A stretch of DNA of 49,778 nucleotides from a virus (Duplodnaviria > Heunggongvirae > Uroviricota > Caudoviricetes). Location of the stretch: IMG/VR virus record IMGVR_UViG_2579778554_000010; one strand, given 5' to 3'. Shown piece after piece: positions 20,551-24,493 of this stretch (positions within the stretch are counted from its first letter, which is position 1; every line of letters starts with the position of its first letter). Under the pieces are notes generated by a model, which saw nothing but the letters and a program-made list of their open reading frames with translations, did no database searches and was not told the DNA's origin. The position numbers and the translations under genes are program-made.

Positions 20551-20626
20551 GGCCCTTTAGCTCAGTGGTGAGAGCGAGCGACTCATAATCGCCAGGTCGC
20601 TGGTTCAAATCCAGCAAGGGCCACCA
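20551..20626 (+). tRNA. tRNA with CAU anticodon (Ile2/Met type, ileZ-like)
   Basis: Hand-folded cloverleaf: acceptor GGCCCTT/AAGGGCC, D-arm AGCTCAGTGG, anticodon loop CTCATAA, 3' CCA. Confidence 0.8.
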
Positions 20627-20635
20627 TATCACATA

Positions 20636-20712
20636 CCGCCATTAGCTCATCGGGATAGAGCGCCAGCCTTCGAAGCTGGTTGCGCGGGGTTCGAGTCCTC
20701 GATGGCGGTCCA
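20636..20712 (+). tRNA. tRNA-Arg (UCG anticodon)
   Basis: Acceptor CCGCCAT/ATGGCGG, anticodon stem CCAGC/GCTGG with loop CTTCGAA, 3' CCA. Confidence 0.75.
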
Positions 20713-20726
20713 TTTATCGGCATTCT

Positions 20727-20803
20727 GCGTTGTTAGCTCAGCCGGACAGAGCAATTGCCTTCTAAGCAATCGGTCACTGGTTCGAATCCAGTACAACGCG
20801 CCA
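20727..20803 (+). tRNA. tRNA-Arg (UCU anticodon)
   Basis: Acceptor GCGTTGT/ACAACGC, anticodon loop CTTCTAA, T-loop GGTTCGAATCC, 3' CCA. Confidence 0.8.
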
Positions 20804-20973
20804 GACTTATTTTTCCCGGCTCGCTTTTGCGGGCCTTTTTTGTATCCGCGCCACGCCCGGCGCATATCAACCACAGAGCCTTTCGGGGGTGAGCTTACGG
20901 AGTGGTCAGTGTGACTTTCTCTGTGGGCAGATCGCTCCCGGGCGTTGGCTCACCCACCCAAAGGAACGTCACA

Positions 20974-21405
20974 ATGCTTGGAATCTTCAAAAAGAAAACC
21001 CGCAGAGCGTCTGCGGAAATTAAAAAGTTTGAAAAACGCGATCTGGCACAGGCAGTGATTAACGCTGCATACCTGGTGGCTTATGCCGATGGTGAATGTG
21101 AGGCTTCCGAGAAAGCGAAGATCGAACAGGTATTACGTAACCAGCCCACCTTGTCCGCGTTTACGTCAGAAATTAATGCGATTAGCGCAACCATTATCGG
21201 TCAGCTGGATACGAACTTTAAAATTGGTCGTCGTGCGGCGTTACGTGAGATCGAGGATGTGAAACACGATACGCGTGAAGCGGAAGACGTGCTGGATGTG
21301 GCGGTGGCCATTGCCGAAGCAGACGGCGAAATAGAGCCGGAAGAGCGCAAGGTGCTGGAAGAGATTGCCGGTGTTCTGGGCCTTCGTCTGGAGAATCATC
21401 TGTGA
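20974..21405 (+). CDS. TerB-like domain protein, 143 aa
   Basis: Motifs AAYLVAYADGECEASEKAKI and VAVAIAEADGEIEPEERKVLEEIAGVLGL resemble the tellurite-resistance TerB fold; start at the internal ATG (MLGIFKKK). Confidence 0.55.
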   Translation: MLGIFKKKTRRASAEIKKFEKRDLAQAVINAAYLVAYADGECEASEKAKIEQVLRNQPTLSAFTSEINAISATIIGQLDTNFKIGRRAALREIEDVKHDTREAEDVLDVAVAIAEADGEIEPEERKVLEEIAGVLGLRLENHL

Positions 21406-21413
21406 CGGTAAAA

Positions 21414-21566
21414 ATGCGTCTGGCTGTGGTTGCGCTCCTGCTGTTTCTGGTGGTGATGGTGGACTTCAGCAGCCGGATAATGTCAGTGCTGGCTGACGGT
21501 GTGCTGGTGGCGGGTGTGGTGGTTGTTGCTTTCCCGTTGCTGAAAAAGAAAGCATCAGGCGATTAG
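21414..21566 (+). CDS. Small hydrophobic membrane protein, 50 aa
   Basis: Hand translation MRLAVVALLLFLVVMVDFSSRIMSVLADGVLVAGVVVVAFPLLKKKASGD; follows the TerB-like gene. Confidence 0.4.
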   Translation: MRLAVVALLLFLVVMVDFSSRIMSVLADGVLVAGVVVVAFPLLKKKASGD

Positions 21567-21601
21567 CAGGGTATCAGTTACCCGTTGAAATTTTTAAATA
21601 C

Positions 21602-21835
21602 CTCACAATTCAGGCGGTTGACTGTTGTCTGGTTTGCGGGGAGTTTGTTAAAAGAAACTGGCATGGTGAATCCCCCTGTGCGGAGGGGCAATCAGCAACT
21701 GGTGTTTTGTCACCGACCCTTATCCTTTCTGTGCGGGTTCAGGTGCTGATACTGAACTCACCGGGAGGCACCCGGCACCATGCAATGGCACATAGTGCCA
21801 CTCTCCAGCCCCTCTCCGGAGGGGCTTTTCTGTGC
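21602..21835 (+). repeat. Non-coding module copy 1, ending in a strong intrinsic terminator (21807-21830)
   Basis: Shares ordered blocks with copy 2: CTCACAATTCAG..TTGAC, TGGTGAATCCCCCTG-GCGGAGGGGC, CTGAACTCACCGGGAGGCACCCGGCACCATG, AGCCCCTCTCCGGAGGGGCTTT. Confidence 0.7.
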
Positions 21836-22084
21836 CGGATACATCACAGTTTCTGGAACCTTAGGTACTACAGTATCAGTCAGGGTGCTATATTTTCAGA
21901 TGTGATGAAAGCCTGTCAGCAGGCAGGGCGTATCGGAAATGACCCAGTAGAGAAAACGTTGACTCAGATACCGGTGCTGAGTTACCGGGAAACCGGCATC
22001 ACATGACCGCTATCCTTCCAGGCCCATCCGCTCCGGTGGGCCTTTTTACTGCAGAAAACAGGTTCCCCGTTAAATGCTATGTTG

Positions 22085-22320
22085 CTCACAATTCAGTAAG
22101 TTGACAGTTGCCTGTCAGACTGGGCATTTGTTAAAAAAATTTCGCATGGTGAATCCCCCTGAGCGGAGGGGCGACTGGTGACGGTATAATCTCTGATTAT
22201 CAAAACGAGAATGACGCGGGTTTAGTGGCACCGGGCTGAACTCACCGGGAGGCACCCGGCACCATGTGCATGATGATACAGATACGCGGCTTTAGCCCCT
22301 CTCCGGAGGGGCTTTCTTGT
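22085..22320 (+). repeat. Non-coding module copy 2, ending in a strong intrinsic terminator (22294-22318); contains TATAAT at 22185-22190
   Basis: Same ordered conserved blocks as copy 1, with a divergent middle. Confidence 0.7.
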
Positions 22321-22531
22321 GGGCAAAAAAAGCCCGAGTGGGTTCGGGCAACAGCATGAGATATACATTTTTATAATCGAATGGATTTTAACCAGAATTC
22401 ATAAGGCTGCGCAACTGCGCGGTCTTTTTCGAATTGCGGGCTGTCGTCTCTCTTCTGCCATTGTCCTGTAACTTCCGGACTTCAGCCCGCTCCTTATTTT
22501 ACTCACAATATTATCCCGGCCGGGAGGATTC

Positions 22532-24493
22532 ATGGCATTTAAACACTATGATGTTGTCAGGGCGGCATCGCCGTCAGACCTTGCGAAACGACTGACACAA
22601 AAACTGAAGGAGGGGTGGCAGCCATTTGGCAGTCCGGTGGCCATCACGCCTTATACCCTGATGCAGGCCATTGCGGCGGAAGGTGATGTCACCACACCTG
22701 TGGTGGTGAAGCCGTCGGATGGAGAAGGCGCAGTTATCAGCACCACCAGCAACCCGGAGTATTACTTTGTTGTTGCCCTGGCCGGGCAGTCAAACGGTAT
22801 GGCGTATGGTGAAGGGCTTCCGCTGCCGGAGACATATGACCGTCCGGACCCGCGTATTAAACAGCTGGCGCGTCGCAGCACTGTCACGCCGGGTGGTGCG
22901 TCCTGTAACTACAATGACATTATTCCTGCGGACCACTGCCTGCATGATGTTCAGGATTTGAGTAAGTTTTCACACCCGAAAGCCAGCGCAGCTCAGTATG
23001 GATGCGTGGGGCAGGGATTACATATCGCGAAGAAATTGTTGCCGTTTATTCCGGCGAATGCCGGTATTCTTCTGGTTCCGTGCTGCCGTGGTGGTTCTGC
23101 ATTTTTGGCGGGCGATGAAGGTACCTTCAGCGAATCCACCGGCGCAAGCGAGACCTCGGCACGCTGGGGTGTAGATAAGCCACTGTACAAGGACCTGCTT
23201 ACCCGTACTCAGGCCGCACTGAAGGCCAACCCTAAAAATATTCTGCTTGCAGTGGTCTGGATGCAGGGCGAGTTTGATTTGAAACAGGGTGCATACGCCA
23301 CTCAGCCGGGGCTGTTTGATTCCATGGTGGAAAAATATCGTTCTGACCTGTCGGAATTCGGAGGTCAGTGTCTCGGGGGCTCTCCGTCATCGGTTCCCTG
23401 GATTTGTGGCGACACGACCTACTACTGGAAGCAGACTTATTCTTCGCAATACGATGCGGTGTATGGTGCATACAAGACGAAATCCGCAAAAAAAATCTTC
23501 TTTGTGCCGTTTATGACGGATGAAAACGGGCGAAATGTGGGTACCAACGAGCCGTCAGAAGATCCGGATGTTGCGGATATTGGGTATTACGGAGCCGGTG
23601 GTCGAACGGACGCCAAAACCTGGACGACGGCCGACCGTAAAACGCATTTTGGATCATGGGCACGTCGTGGGATTATTTCCGACCGTCTGGCAACGGCGAT
23701 TCTTGTGCATGCCGGGAGAAACGCTGAATTCATTACCGGAAAACAGCCTGATACGGTGAAGCCCACCGGACCTTCCGGTGAAGGTACGGAGAGAGAGCCG
23801 GAAGCCCCGGTCAGTAACCGAACCCTGATGAGTCTGCTGGCGTCCGGCGAAGACCTGGCATCACAGGGCTGGCGCTATTATCACAAACCGGCGAGCGGAG
23901 ACAATGTTAACAAAAACATTGCTGAAGCGGTGGTCAGTGATGCGGGGGCTACGGGAGGTAAGGCCCTGCAACTGAATAAACCGGAAAACCACATCTGGTT
24001 TCTGGAGCATGATGCAGCCGGACAGGGAGTGGAGTTACTGAAGAAGGGGGGACGTGTGAGCGTACGGTTTAAGTTGCCGGGTTCACTGGTGCCGAATCAG
24101 TTTGCCCTGGGCATTTACTGGCAGTTGTCGTCCCTGCCGGAGGGAGTGACGCTGGCAGAGGAAGGCAACGACATGCTGATGTCCTTCTTCCTGCAGACGG
24201 ATGCGACGAACCTGAACGCGATGCACCACAAGAAGCCGAATGCGAAGCTGGATACGTTCGGGGTCTTTGATAACGGATGGCACACACTGGCTTTTGAGTT
24301 TGCCGGAAACAACAGCATTCAGGTGACGCCGGTACTGGATGAGAAACGGGGGACGCCGTTCACACTGGTGAAATCTCCGGCATCAGGGGCGGCGGACAAA
24401 CTGCAACTGACAGGCATATCAAAGGCGGCGACATATACGCTGCTGATTGACAGTGTGAAGGTGGAAGTGAACAACGCGGACATCGCGGCATGA
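22532..24493 (+). CDS. Prophage sialate O-acetylesterase (NanS-p-like: DUF1737 N-terminus plus SGNH/SASA esterase domain)
   Basis: N-terminus MAFKHYDVVRAASPSDLAKRLTQKLKEGWQPFG and esterase motif VVALAGQSNGMAYGEG; this family sits downstream of stx in Shiga-toxin phages. Confidence 0.75.
   Translation: MAFKHYDVVRAASPSDLAKRLTQKLKEGWQPFGSPVAITPYTLMQAIAAEGDVTTPVVVKPSDGEGAVISTTSNPEYYFVVALAGQSNGMAYGEGLPLPETYDRPDPRIKQLARRSTVTPGGASCNYNDIIPADHCLHDVQDLSKFSHPKASAAQYGCVGQGLHIAKKLLPFIPANAGILLVPCCRGGSAFLAGDEGTFSESTGASETSARWGVDKPLYKDLLTRTQAALKANPKNILLAVVWMQGEFDLKQGAYATQPGLFDSMVEKYRSDLSEFGGQCLGGSPSSVPWICGDTTYYWKQTYSSQYDAVYGAYKTKSAKKIFFVPFMTDENGRNVGTNEPSEDPDVADIGYYGAGGRTDAKTWTTADRKTHFGSWARRGIISDRLATAILVHAGRNAEFITGKQPDTVKPTGPSGEGTEREPEAPVSNRTLMSLLASGEDLASQGWRYYHKPASGDNVNKNIAEAVVSDAGATGGKALQLNKPENHIWFLEHDAAGQGVELLKKGGRVSVRFKLPGSLVPNQFALGIYWQLSSLPEGVTLAEEGNDMLMSFFLQTDATNLNAMHHKKPNAKLDTFGVFDNGWHTLAFEFAGNNSIQVTPVLDEKRGTPFTLVKSPASGAADKLQLTGISKAATYTLLIDSVKVEVNNADIAA

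Follow-up and report, generated by a model that had tools for sequence, protein, structure and literature searches.

A TerB-type gene pair at the position of stxAB in the late region of an stx-negative lambdoid prophage

In Ter systems, the TerB protein is reported to act together with membrane Ter proteins; it associates with TerC and the membrane, and its D-G-x5-E motifs form a putative metal site. In terZABCDE(F) clusters, TerB is encoded together with TerC, TerD/E, TerZ and TerA. A second setting for the family is phage P1, which carries the genes tciA-tciB-tciC, and in D6-like plasmids the tciAB pair has been noted to be embedded among phage tRNA genes (PMC6799933). The third system that concerns us is the late region of Shiga toxin (Stx) phages. 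In the Stx2a phage Stx2_EH1910, the order is rusA, an 822-nt Q gene, a 198-nt open reading frame (ORF), a 1059-nt methylase gene, three tRNA genes, stx2A, stx2B, iraM, yjhS, two small ORFs and a holin gene, and in Stx2 phages an element of the STnc100 family of small RNAs (sRNAs) has been placed 75 nt downstream of stx2 (PMC12370729). Here we describe a lambdoid Escherichia coli prophage in a viral DNA record of 49,778 nucleotides (Caudoviricetes; IMGVR_UViG_2579778554_000010), the whole of which is referred to as the window. Positions 18.0–25.4 kb are the late regulatory and lysis-proximal part of this prophage and contain a TerB-family gene, tciA (20974–21405, plus strand), followed by tciB (plus strand, to 21566). 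Almost certainly, the pair occupies the promoter-proximal ("moron") cargo slot in the late operon of a lambdoid prophage without stx, with homologues of the P1 genes standing where stxAB is found in Stx phages.

The best phage matches to positions 18000–25500 were Stx2a, Stx2c and Stx1a phages at 82–88% identity, with a query coverage of at most 72% each. Against Stx2a_WGPS2, identity was 96% from the tR′ terminator (18960) to position 20852, about 45 nt before stxA, and homology restarted at 22086, 46 nt past stxB, at 87% identity. Only the interval 20853–22085 differs from the Stx2a phages, measuring 1,233 bp in the window and 1,328 bp with stxAB. The swapped 1,233 bp comprise the tciA leader, tciA, tciB, and the first and a degenerate copy of the STnc100 element. 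A terminator hairpin anchors the slot on its left side; its right anchor is an STnc100 element, one of which stands after each cargo. The left anchor, an intrinsic terminator found by terminator scan at 20818–20845 (plus strand; GGCTCGC-TTTTG-CGGGCC, then T6), forms the left edge of the slot and is common to Stx2 phages.

A preliminary description of this DNA had listed Q, a terminator, an orphan methyltransferase, three tRNA genes, a TerB-like gene, a hydrophobic ORF and a NanS-p-like esterase gene, and had reported no toxin subunit ORF. Every listed element was found in its place, and tblastn across the whole 49.8-kb window with StxA2 and StxB2 from Stx2a_WGPS2 gave best E values of 0.3 and 0.54, respectively; blastn with stx2AB returned only chance matches of 15–23 nt. 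Whole-region comparison with Stx phages likewise agreed with the proposal of an stx-negative relative, as the Q allele, 198-nt ORF, methylase, tRNAs, esterase, DUF1378, DUF826 and holin are ordered as in Stx2_EH1910. The TerB-like gene is not a fixed companion of the toxin genes, since, of the 47 phage records with a blastn hit to tciA, none is Stx-named; the phage collection has at least 223 Stx-named records.

The region upstream of stx2A (loci L002 3340–3430 and L151 3805–3900), compared with window positions 20810–20976, keeps both ends of the tciA leader and lacks its central ~95 nt. The retained ends are a GCGCC...GGTGC hairpin right after the terminator, resembling the first hairpin of the leader, and the AAAGGAAC ribosome-binding site. 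Because both leader ends are kept before stx2A, the stx and tciAB cargoes appear to share a common 5′ scaffold. The safe statement is that tciAB and stxAB are alternative cargoes of one slot, and, if anything, tciAB looks like the older resident. The slot also has other contents: truncated leader remnants lie before unrelated cargo, and DUF3927-only remnants with iraM fill it in sibling prophages. The locus illustrates cleanly how the stx position serves as a general cargo slot that is prone to recombination, with stxAB as only one of several occupants.

These remnants take several forms. Leader remnants are truncated at different points before unrelated sequence in seven loci (L030, L038, L053, L061, L095, L103 and L114); beyond the truncation point, L095 and L103 have a strong TTGACA-17-TATAGT promoter. 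The sibling prophages of CFT073, MRSN346638 and SCU-204 (L005 4034–4120, L006 3969–4100 and L152 6125–6256) keep only a truncated DUF3927 fragment, followed by antisense iraM. The loci with truncated DUF3927 and iraM look like decayed tciAB cassettes.

Late control was assessed from the architecture of the region and its promoters and terminators. The Q gene (18056–18877, plus strand) encodes a 273-amino-acid (aa) late antiterminator of the quuQ/phage-82-like type (Pfam Antiterm PF03589, 166 bits); a Q of equal length and the same gene order occur in Stx2_EH1910, whose late-region DNA is 88% identical to the window overall. A candidate late promoter PR′ was read from the sequence at 18883–18910 (plus strand; TTGATT, a 16-nt spacer and the extended −10 element TGgTAAATT); its score of 8/12 lies under the threshold of the consensus scan. 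It is followed by a tR′-like intrinsic terminator at 18960–18985 (plus strand, terminator scan; CCCGCCGCCTGGCGGG, then T6), at which a PR′ transcript would stop after ~70 nt. Between 18700 and 25500, 21 terminator-like sites were counted, roughly three times the 7.4 ± 2.9 expected from shuffled sequences. Of 69 distinct sequence contexts upstream of the tciA leader, 63 had an intrinsic terminator directly before it, and because these terminators comprised 42 different hairpin sequences, it is the feature that is kept and not its sequence. No plus-strand sigma-70 consensus was found between 20846 and 20973, and none was conserved in the leader alignments. Given this fencing by terminators and the lack of a recognisable promoter, tciAB would be readable only by terminator-resistant, Q-modified polymerase.

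The position of the pair is constant. In all lambdoid relatives examined (JLK-2012, the O157:H7 non-Stx prophage, PPyecE_EH1910, Evi, Klebsiella phage 5 LV-2017 and vB_Apl-pPE4), tciAB lies between Q and the lysis genes. The minimal order, seen in Pseudescherichia prophage L143, is Q, a TTGACT-17-TATGCT promoter, a terminator, the leader, tciA, tciB, two holins and an endolysin. Q-modified RNA polymerase from PR′ would read through tR′ and the following terminators, so that tciAB would be transcribed late in lytic growth with the lysis genes, and the conserved structured leader would probably set the level of tciA and tciB translation on this late transcript. As judged from the sequence, late, Q-dependent expression of tciAB together with the lysis genes is probable. 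The preliminary description had placed a TerB-like stress protein under Q-dependent late control; the late control fits the architecture, and "stress protein" is a family label only.

The leader between the terminator and tciA (20846–20973, plus strand; ~125 nt, 128 nt in the window) was delimited by alignments as a non-coding, candidate structured 5′ untranslated region and is a candidate cis-regulatory RNA. An exact 16-mer from it matched more than 120 IMG/VR stretches, and tciA followed in 113 of 127 instances. Across 44 distinct loci, the leader was 77–98% identical to that of the window where the tciA coding sequence was only 57–61% and the protein ~42% identical. It is common to two tciA allele families that share only ~42% protein identity and occurs in lambdoid phages of at least seven enterobacterial genera. 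An unbiased, protein-anchored search found it in Franconibacter, Pantoea, Pseudescherichia, "Enterobacter" pulveris, Buttiauxella and Citrobacter; in the same search, it was not seen before the P1-type plasmid copies or the Pseudomonas, Erwinia and Rosenbergiella homologues. A permissive Rfam search of 20780–21080 gave matches far below threshold (best 18.2 bits against a gathering score of 40), and a literature search for the leader sequence returned nothing relevant.

Four elements make up the predicted fold. A hairpin termed P1 (20848–20863) is followed by helix H1, formed by CCACAGAG (20871–78) with CUCUGUGG (20919–26), and by hairpin P3 (GGUCA-GUG-UGACU); the 3′ part holds a G-rich strand, which can pair with either of two downstream strands, and then an AAAGGAA ribosome-binding site. 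The leaders fall into five sequence classes, which support these helices. In hairpin P1, a C-G pair becomes U-A in class E. In helix H1, an A-U pair is replaced by G-C in each of the seven class E sequences and a G-C pair by A-U in L145, and the closing pair of P3 is G.U, G-C or A-U. Changes in the G-rich strand and its variable downstream partner are mostly wobble-preserving or compensatory, and the strand lengths co-vary. In alignment A7, 95.5% of cells were paired and five pairs had changed on both sides; the covariation score was 0.142, compared with 0.105 ± 0.006 in shuffles (0 of 500 reached it) and 0.03–0.07 with the partners slid. The alternative partner of the G-rich strand is the invariant GGCUCACC just before the ribosome-binding site, with −13 to −20 kcal/mol in all but one sequence. 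Because H1 and the G-rich helix cross, the leader would fold either as a pseudoknot or as a switch.

Other models of this stretch fitted less well. A nested RNAalifold model from seven sequences contained a helix, A3, that was only 80% paired, with 13–14 sequences mismatched at two positions, and H1 fits better. A long-range helix (8–14/104–110) proposed by RNAalifold from 30 sequences has one covarying pair, which follows the (A,B)/(C,D) class split and probably reflects a single event; the class E change from C-G to U-A speaks for the local P1 hairpin, whereas it gives the long-range helix an A.C mismatch, and the rejection is not decisive. An N-terminal extension of tciA from GTG 20902 (a 167-aa ORF) was rejected because the leader classes differ by indels of 1 nt or more and by a G-run of 5–12 nt, across which the frame would shift. 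By the same indels and G-run, the leader is non-coding. Finally, an antisense RNA ending at the minus-strand terminator-like hairpin at 21017–20999 was discarded, as this hairpin is not kept in JLK-2012 or in the O157 allele. That the leader is an undescribed cis-regulatory RNA, pseudoknotted or switching, which gates TerB/TciB translation on the late transcript is a tentative proposal to which we give clearly less than an even chance. Being better conserved than its gene and absent from Rfam, it offers a concrete and cheap target for reporter and structure-probing experiments, and if it were to sense a ligand or ion relevant to TerB, it would provide the first experimental handle on phage TerB proteins.

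TciA is a 143-aa protein that matched Pfam TerB (PF05099) over residues 26–138 with 60.2 bits against a cut-off of 24.4, and PHROG 632 ("tellurite resistance", moron category) over residues 1–143 of 143 (E 8.8e-69). Neither of its two acidic D-G-x5-E motifs (D39/G40/E46 and D117/G118/E124) varies between the two allele families. The ratio of non-synonymous to synonymous substitution rates (dN/dS) was 0.03–0.10 among alleles whose dS reached 1.5, which indicates strong purifying selection on tciA and hence a functional gene. The GTG start of tciB overlaps the tciA stop codon (GTGA, 21402–21405), giving a protein of 54 aa from GTG 21402 (RefSeq) or of 50 aa from ATG 21414. TciB matched DUF3927 (PF13064, 71.6 bits) and PHROG 1470 ("TciB-like"; residues 1–51 of 54, E 1.6e-24), and has two hydrophobic segments, seen as two hydropathy peaks, and basic termini. 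Both genes are filed by PHROG under "moron, auxiliary metabolic gene and host takeover". The two travel together, tciB standing directly after tciA in 102 of the 103 loci with enough sequence to judge; this linkage and the start/stop overlap speak for co-expression.

Full-length relatives of TciA were found by tblastn in 130 phage records. Those of JLK-2012, Evi and PPyecE_EH1910 had 95–98% aa identity, those of ~240-kb Erwinia/Salmonella jumbo phages 66–76%, and those of P1, P7 and D6 41–51%. Phages of Escherichia, Klebsiella, Pseudescherichia, Franconibacter, Pantoea, Buttiauxella and Citrobacter have the pair between Q and the holin gene, in many cases without nearby tRNAs or an esterase gene. 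Among 5,426 complete E. coli genomes, 790 had at least 80% of the leader-tciA-tciB cassette covered, whereas some part of it was matched in 2,364. A stretch of 2.1 kb that runs from the tRNAs to the start of the esterase gene was 100% identical in dozens of sequenced E. coli genomes, from human, dog and water isolates and including extraintestinal pathogenic E. coli, and was at least 80% covered in 104 genomes. In O157:H7 strains, the cassette sits in a non-Stx prophage in the same slot, in the order tRNA-Ile, tRNA-Arg, TerB, DUF3927, esterase, holin.

These genes also already carry names. The Prokaryotic Genome Annotation Pipeline (PGAP) calls them "tellurite resistance TerB family protein" and "DUF3927 family protein", they are named tciA/tciB in phage JLK-2012 and PPyecE_EH1910, and the relatives in the O157:H7 prophage, Evi and PPyecE are annotated tciA/tciB or "TciA/TerB-like". 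In a 2026 preprint, TerB (PF05099) is one of the conserved neighbours listed for PasA and PasC, two prophage sRNAs. The observation that such a gene lies here is already known and adds little new, as the gene pair is common and annotated; likewise the locus as filed matters little, being identical in dozens of genomes whose genes NCBI has already annotated.

By analogy with TerB in Ter systems (literature cited in PMC6799933 and PMC7371120), TciA would be a cytoplasmic all-alpha protein that probably binds divalent cations and, partnered by TciB in the membrane, acts at the inner membrane. The two proteins would benefit the infected cell, for example by preserving membrane or ion balance until programmed lysis or by excluding other phages or colicins, and would not act as a lysogenic-conversion toxin. 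Such a role in lytic growth at the membrane is plausible, at somewhat under an even chance. The homologues in the jumbo phages and the position of the P1 genes behind C1-repressed promoters are hints of a lytic-phase function. Taken as a whole, the combination of slot identity, late control and a lytic membrane role is the likely best explanation of the locus.

Several points count against this explanation. The case for late control comes from architecture and from a consensus promoter scan that may miss weak or non-sigma-70 promoters, and the tRNAs and sRNAs of the region need expression in lysogens, from which some read-through into tciAB is possible. The covariation in the leader consists of few events among closely related sequences and was scored on a structure derived from those same sequences, and the competing helices are not separated by the data. 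No PADLOC defence-system match was obtained for TciA, TciB, the esterase or a 296-aa ORF downstream, and our literature search found no paper testing TciA or TciB function. We know of no case in which a lone TerB, without TerC, TerD or TerZ, gives tellurite resistance. Lastly, tciA, tciB and tciC were non-essential for plaque formation in a CRISPR interference (CRISPRi) study of P1 (PMC10695390).

The TerB homology of TciA and the PHROG category of both genes would also suit a lysogenic-conversion cassette, in which tciAB would be expressed in the lysogen from an unrecognised promoter and confer Ter-like phenotypes such as resistance to superinfection, pore-forming colicins, tellurite or oxidative stress. 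For ter operons on plasmids, inhibition of phages and resistance to colicins have been reported, as cited in PMC7371120 and PMC6799933, and the cassette is present in the 790 E. coli genomes counted above and kept under purifying selection in prophages. Conversion is nevertheless unlikely in our view, given a conserved leader without a sigma-70 consensus, a terminator immediately upstream in most contexts, a position always between Q/tR′ and the holin, and the absence of terC/terD/terZ partners and of a PADLOC match. Homologues also occur in the Erwinia/Salmonella jumbo phages, which are taken as virulent. The late-operon position, the jumbo-phage homologues and the P1 location behind C1-repressed promoters are the reasons for which we favour a lytic role over lysogenic conversion. 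A different kind of alternative concerns history. The preliminary description had raised a toxin-locus replacement; in its full form, a recent Stx2 ancestor would have lost stxAB, with tciAB and one STnc100 copy substituted by recombination. A TerB-type gene does sit in the toxin slot, between flanks 96% (left) and 87% (right) identical to those of Stx2a_WGPS2; the Q allele and gene order match Stx2_EH1910, and the shared left hairpin and right STnc100 element are plausible recombination anchors for both cargoes. The direction of exchange, however, is not readable from the sequence, and the window has no stx remnant. Moreover, tciAB with its leader is a widespread slot occupant across genera, including in phages without tRNAs or esterase, decayed DUF3927 remnants lie in sibling prophages, and the stx2A upstream region, resembling a tciA leader minus its centre, fits at least as well with stx arriving in a tciA-type slot. 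A true replacement of the toxin locus is thus distinctly unlikely.

The small size of TciB, its two hydrophobic segments with basic ends, its overlap with tciA and the minimal arrangements of L143 and vB_Apl-pPE4, in which tciAB stands immediately before the holin genes, could instead speak for a lysis-timing module, with TciB modulating the holin or the membrane potential and TciA as its cytoplasmic regulator. We regard this as improbable, since TciB matches only DUF3927 in Pfam and no holin or antiholin family, the P1 pair lies in the tRNA/ban region with no lysis gene near, ~3.6 kb of sRNA and esterase genes separates tciB from the holin in the window, and the P1 knock-downs were non-essential. 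Some sibling prophages keep only truncated DUF3927 fragments, as would be expected if these were decaying passenger ORFs in a defective prophage; the low dN/dS across divergent alleles, the intactness of both ORFs in 102 of 103 loci and the full-length PHROG matches make such a non-functional relic hardly credible. Returning to a late-expressed pair with a lytic function, TciA and TciB occur very commonly among enterobacterial phages, purifying selection on them is strong, and the constancy of their place at the start of the late operon favours a lytic role over lysogenic conversion.

The remainder of the late region follows the lambdoid plan. RusA (17685–18059, Pfam) precedes Q. Downstream of tR′, a 65-aa conserved late-region ORF (the 198-nt ORF; 19104–19301, plus strand, PHROG 331) carries a hypothetical-protein annotation in matching genomes and in Stx2 phages, and a terminator-like hairpin from the terminator scan follows at 19288–19305. 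An orphan N6/N4 DNA methyltransferase (19452–20510, plus strand) matched PF01555 with 151 bits and PADLOC MTase_II with 543 bits; the annotation of the adjoining genes includes no restriction or nuclease partner. Three plus-strand tRNA genes, detected by ARAGORN and Rfam, come next: an ileZ-type tRNA-Ile2 with anticodon CAU at 20551–20626 (called Met by ARAGORN and tRNA-Ile by RefSeq), an argN-type tRNA-Arg (UCG) at 20636–20712 and an argO-type tRNA-Arg (UCU) at 20727–20803, both Arg in RefSeq.

Between tciB and the esterase gene (21632–22379), in a spacer whose RNA features the preliminary description does not list, three tandem STnc100-family elements were observed, two above the Rfam threshold and one degenerate; each unit starts with CTCACAATTCAG...GTTGAC and terminates in a terminator. 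Copy 1 (21632–21837, plus strand; RF02076, 139.7 bits against a gathering score of 47) ends in the terminator at 21807–21826 and moves together with the tciAB cassette. The degenerate third element (21876–22049, plus strand) scored a sub-threshold 30.1 bits (E 1.7e-4) in Rfam and ends in the terminator at 22020–22043. Copy 2 (22115–22324, plus strand; 165.5 bits against the same gathering score of 47) is the counterpart of the copy after stx2B in Stx2 phages and is 87% identical to the Stx2-phage locus L002 4711–4945. Convergent with copy 2 is the anti-sRNA AsxR (22327–22379, minus strand; RF02703), whose 63 bits equal the gathering score exactly.

The esterase gene (22532–24493, plus strand) encodes a predicted NanS-p-type sialate O-acetylesterase of 653 aa, labelled SASA family carbohydrate esterase in RefSeq. 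Its domains, DUF1737 (PF08410, 57.9 bits), SASA (PF03629, 36.3 bits) and DUF6645 (PF20350, 147.6 bits), correspond to the NanS-p domain architecture, and PHROG 143 was matched over the full length. DUF1378 (24630–24812) and DUF826 (24850–25095) genes stand between the esterase and a class II holin (25172–25387, plus strand), the first lysis gene downstream, which was assigned by mapping the ORF list onto locus L003, which is 99.8% identical and annotated in RefSeq. The 296-aa ORF (25392–26282) between holin and endolysin matched PHROG 1085, with its first ~113 aa matching the YdfR-like PHROG 406, and the corresponding place in SCU-204 is annotated as a truncated YdfR pseudogene. In the early region, DicF antisense RNA (4537–4588, minus strand) and a sok antitoxin RNA with hokD (13736–13911, plus strand) were noted.

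The window itself appears composite. Positions 332–25719 match the tciAB prophage of ST1193-type genomes at 99.8–100%, and positions 25000–49778 are 100% identical to another prophage, whose head genes are lambda-like and whose slot has a DUF3927 remnant plus iraM; this second prophage lies ~190 kb away in the same orientation in the same genomes. The junction (~25700–26300) was found as one piece in no complete genome of the collection. The window is a hybrid of two sibling prophages, produced either by real recombination in the near-identical esterase-to-holin stretch or by a chimeric assembly. A stretch of ~1.2 kb in the immunity/early region (6100–7298) was unmatched in the otherwise 99.8–100% identical prophage of WP3-W18-CRE-03. 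A circular record of 195 kb from strain 23AR0151 (NZ_CP195449.1, L153), labelled plasmid p23AR0151A, contains the tciAB prophage in full; the size of this record, near the chromosomal distance between the sibling prophages, suggests an excised or mis-assigned chromosomal segment.

Set beside the described TerB systems, TciA matched the sequence of Klebsiella pneumoniae KP-TerB (PDB 2JXU) over residues 13–137 (E 4e-8), with both D-G...E motifs aligned. In contrast to the ter clusters, a lone TerB stands here with a DUF3927 peptide, phage-borne and in a late operon, and, apart from the TerB homologue, the annotation of the matching prophages includes no ter gene. Compared with the P1 pair, TciA is 41–51% identical to that of P1/P7 over the full length with invariant acidic motifs, TciB is 49% identical to that of P1, and the order tciA then tciB with overlapping start and stop codons is shared, the function in P1 being given "by homology" only. 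The window differs in having no tciC (the best tblastn E value for P1 TciC was 1.3, not near tciB), and P1 is without the conserved tciA leader. Judged by position, the P1 genes are in a tRNA region and follow the ban promoters, which C1 represses, whereas those of the window sit in a probable Q-dependent late operon. In JLK-2012, Asn, Thr and Gly tRNAs lie just before tciA (L001 5770–6003), and in P1 (L007 1616–1769), Asn and Thr tRNAs lie upstream and Ile(CAU) after tciC. Because both carry tRNAs beside the pair, tciAB appears to be repeatedly linked to phage tRNA clusters.

The closest relatives of the cassette are JLK-2012 (from O55:H7 DEC5E), PPyecE_EH1910, Evi and the O157:H7 non-Stx prophages, which have the same cassette (95–98% aa identity) and the same leader between Q and the esterase/holin. 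Homology to JLK-2012 covers window positions 20779–21792, and that phage has one STnc100-like element after tciB. These relatives differ from the window in their Q alleles and in their upstream modules, the latter being the Asn/Thr/Gly tRNAs in JLK-2012, toxin-antitoxin-like genes in PPyecE and two tRNAs in O157. Relative to the Stx2 phages, the window has two full STnc100 copies and one degenerate copy where those have a single one, and Stx2_EH1910 additionally has iraM between stx2B and the esterase gene. The window lacks the Stx A and B genes, which define an Stx-converting lambdoid phage, yet it shares with Stx2a_WGPS2 and Stx2_EH1910, at 86–96% DNA identity, the synteny of their late region: Q, tR′, methylase, ileZ-argN-argO, cargo, nanS-p and the lysis genes.

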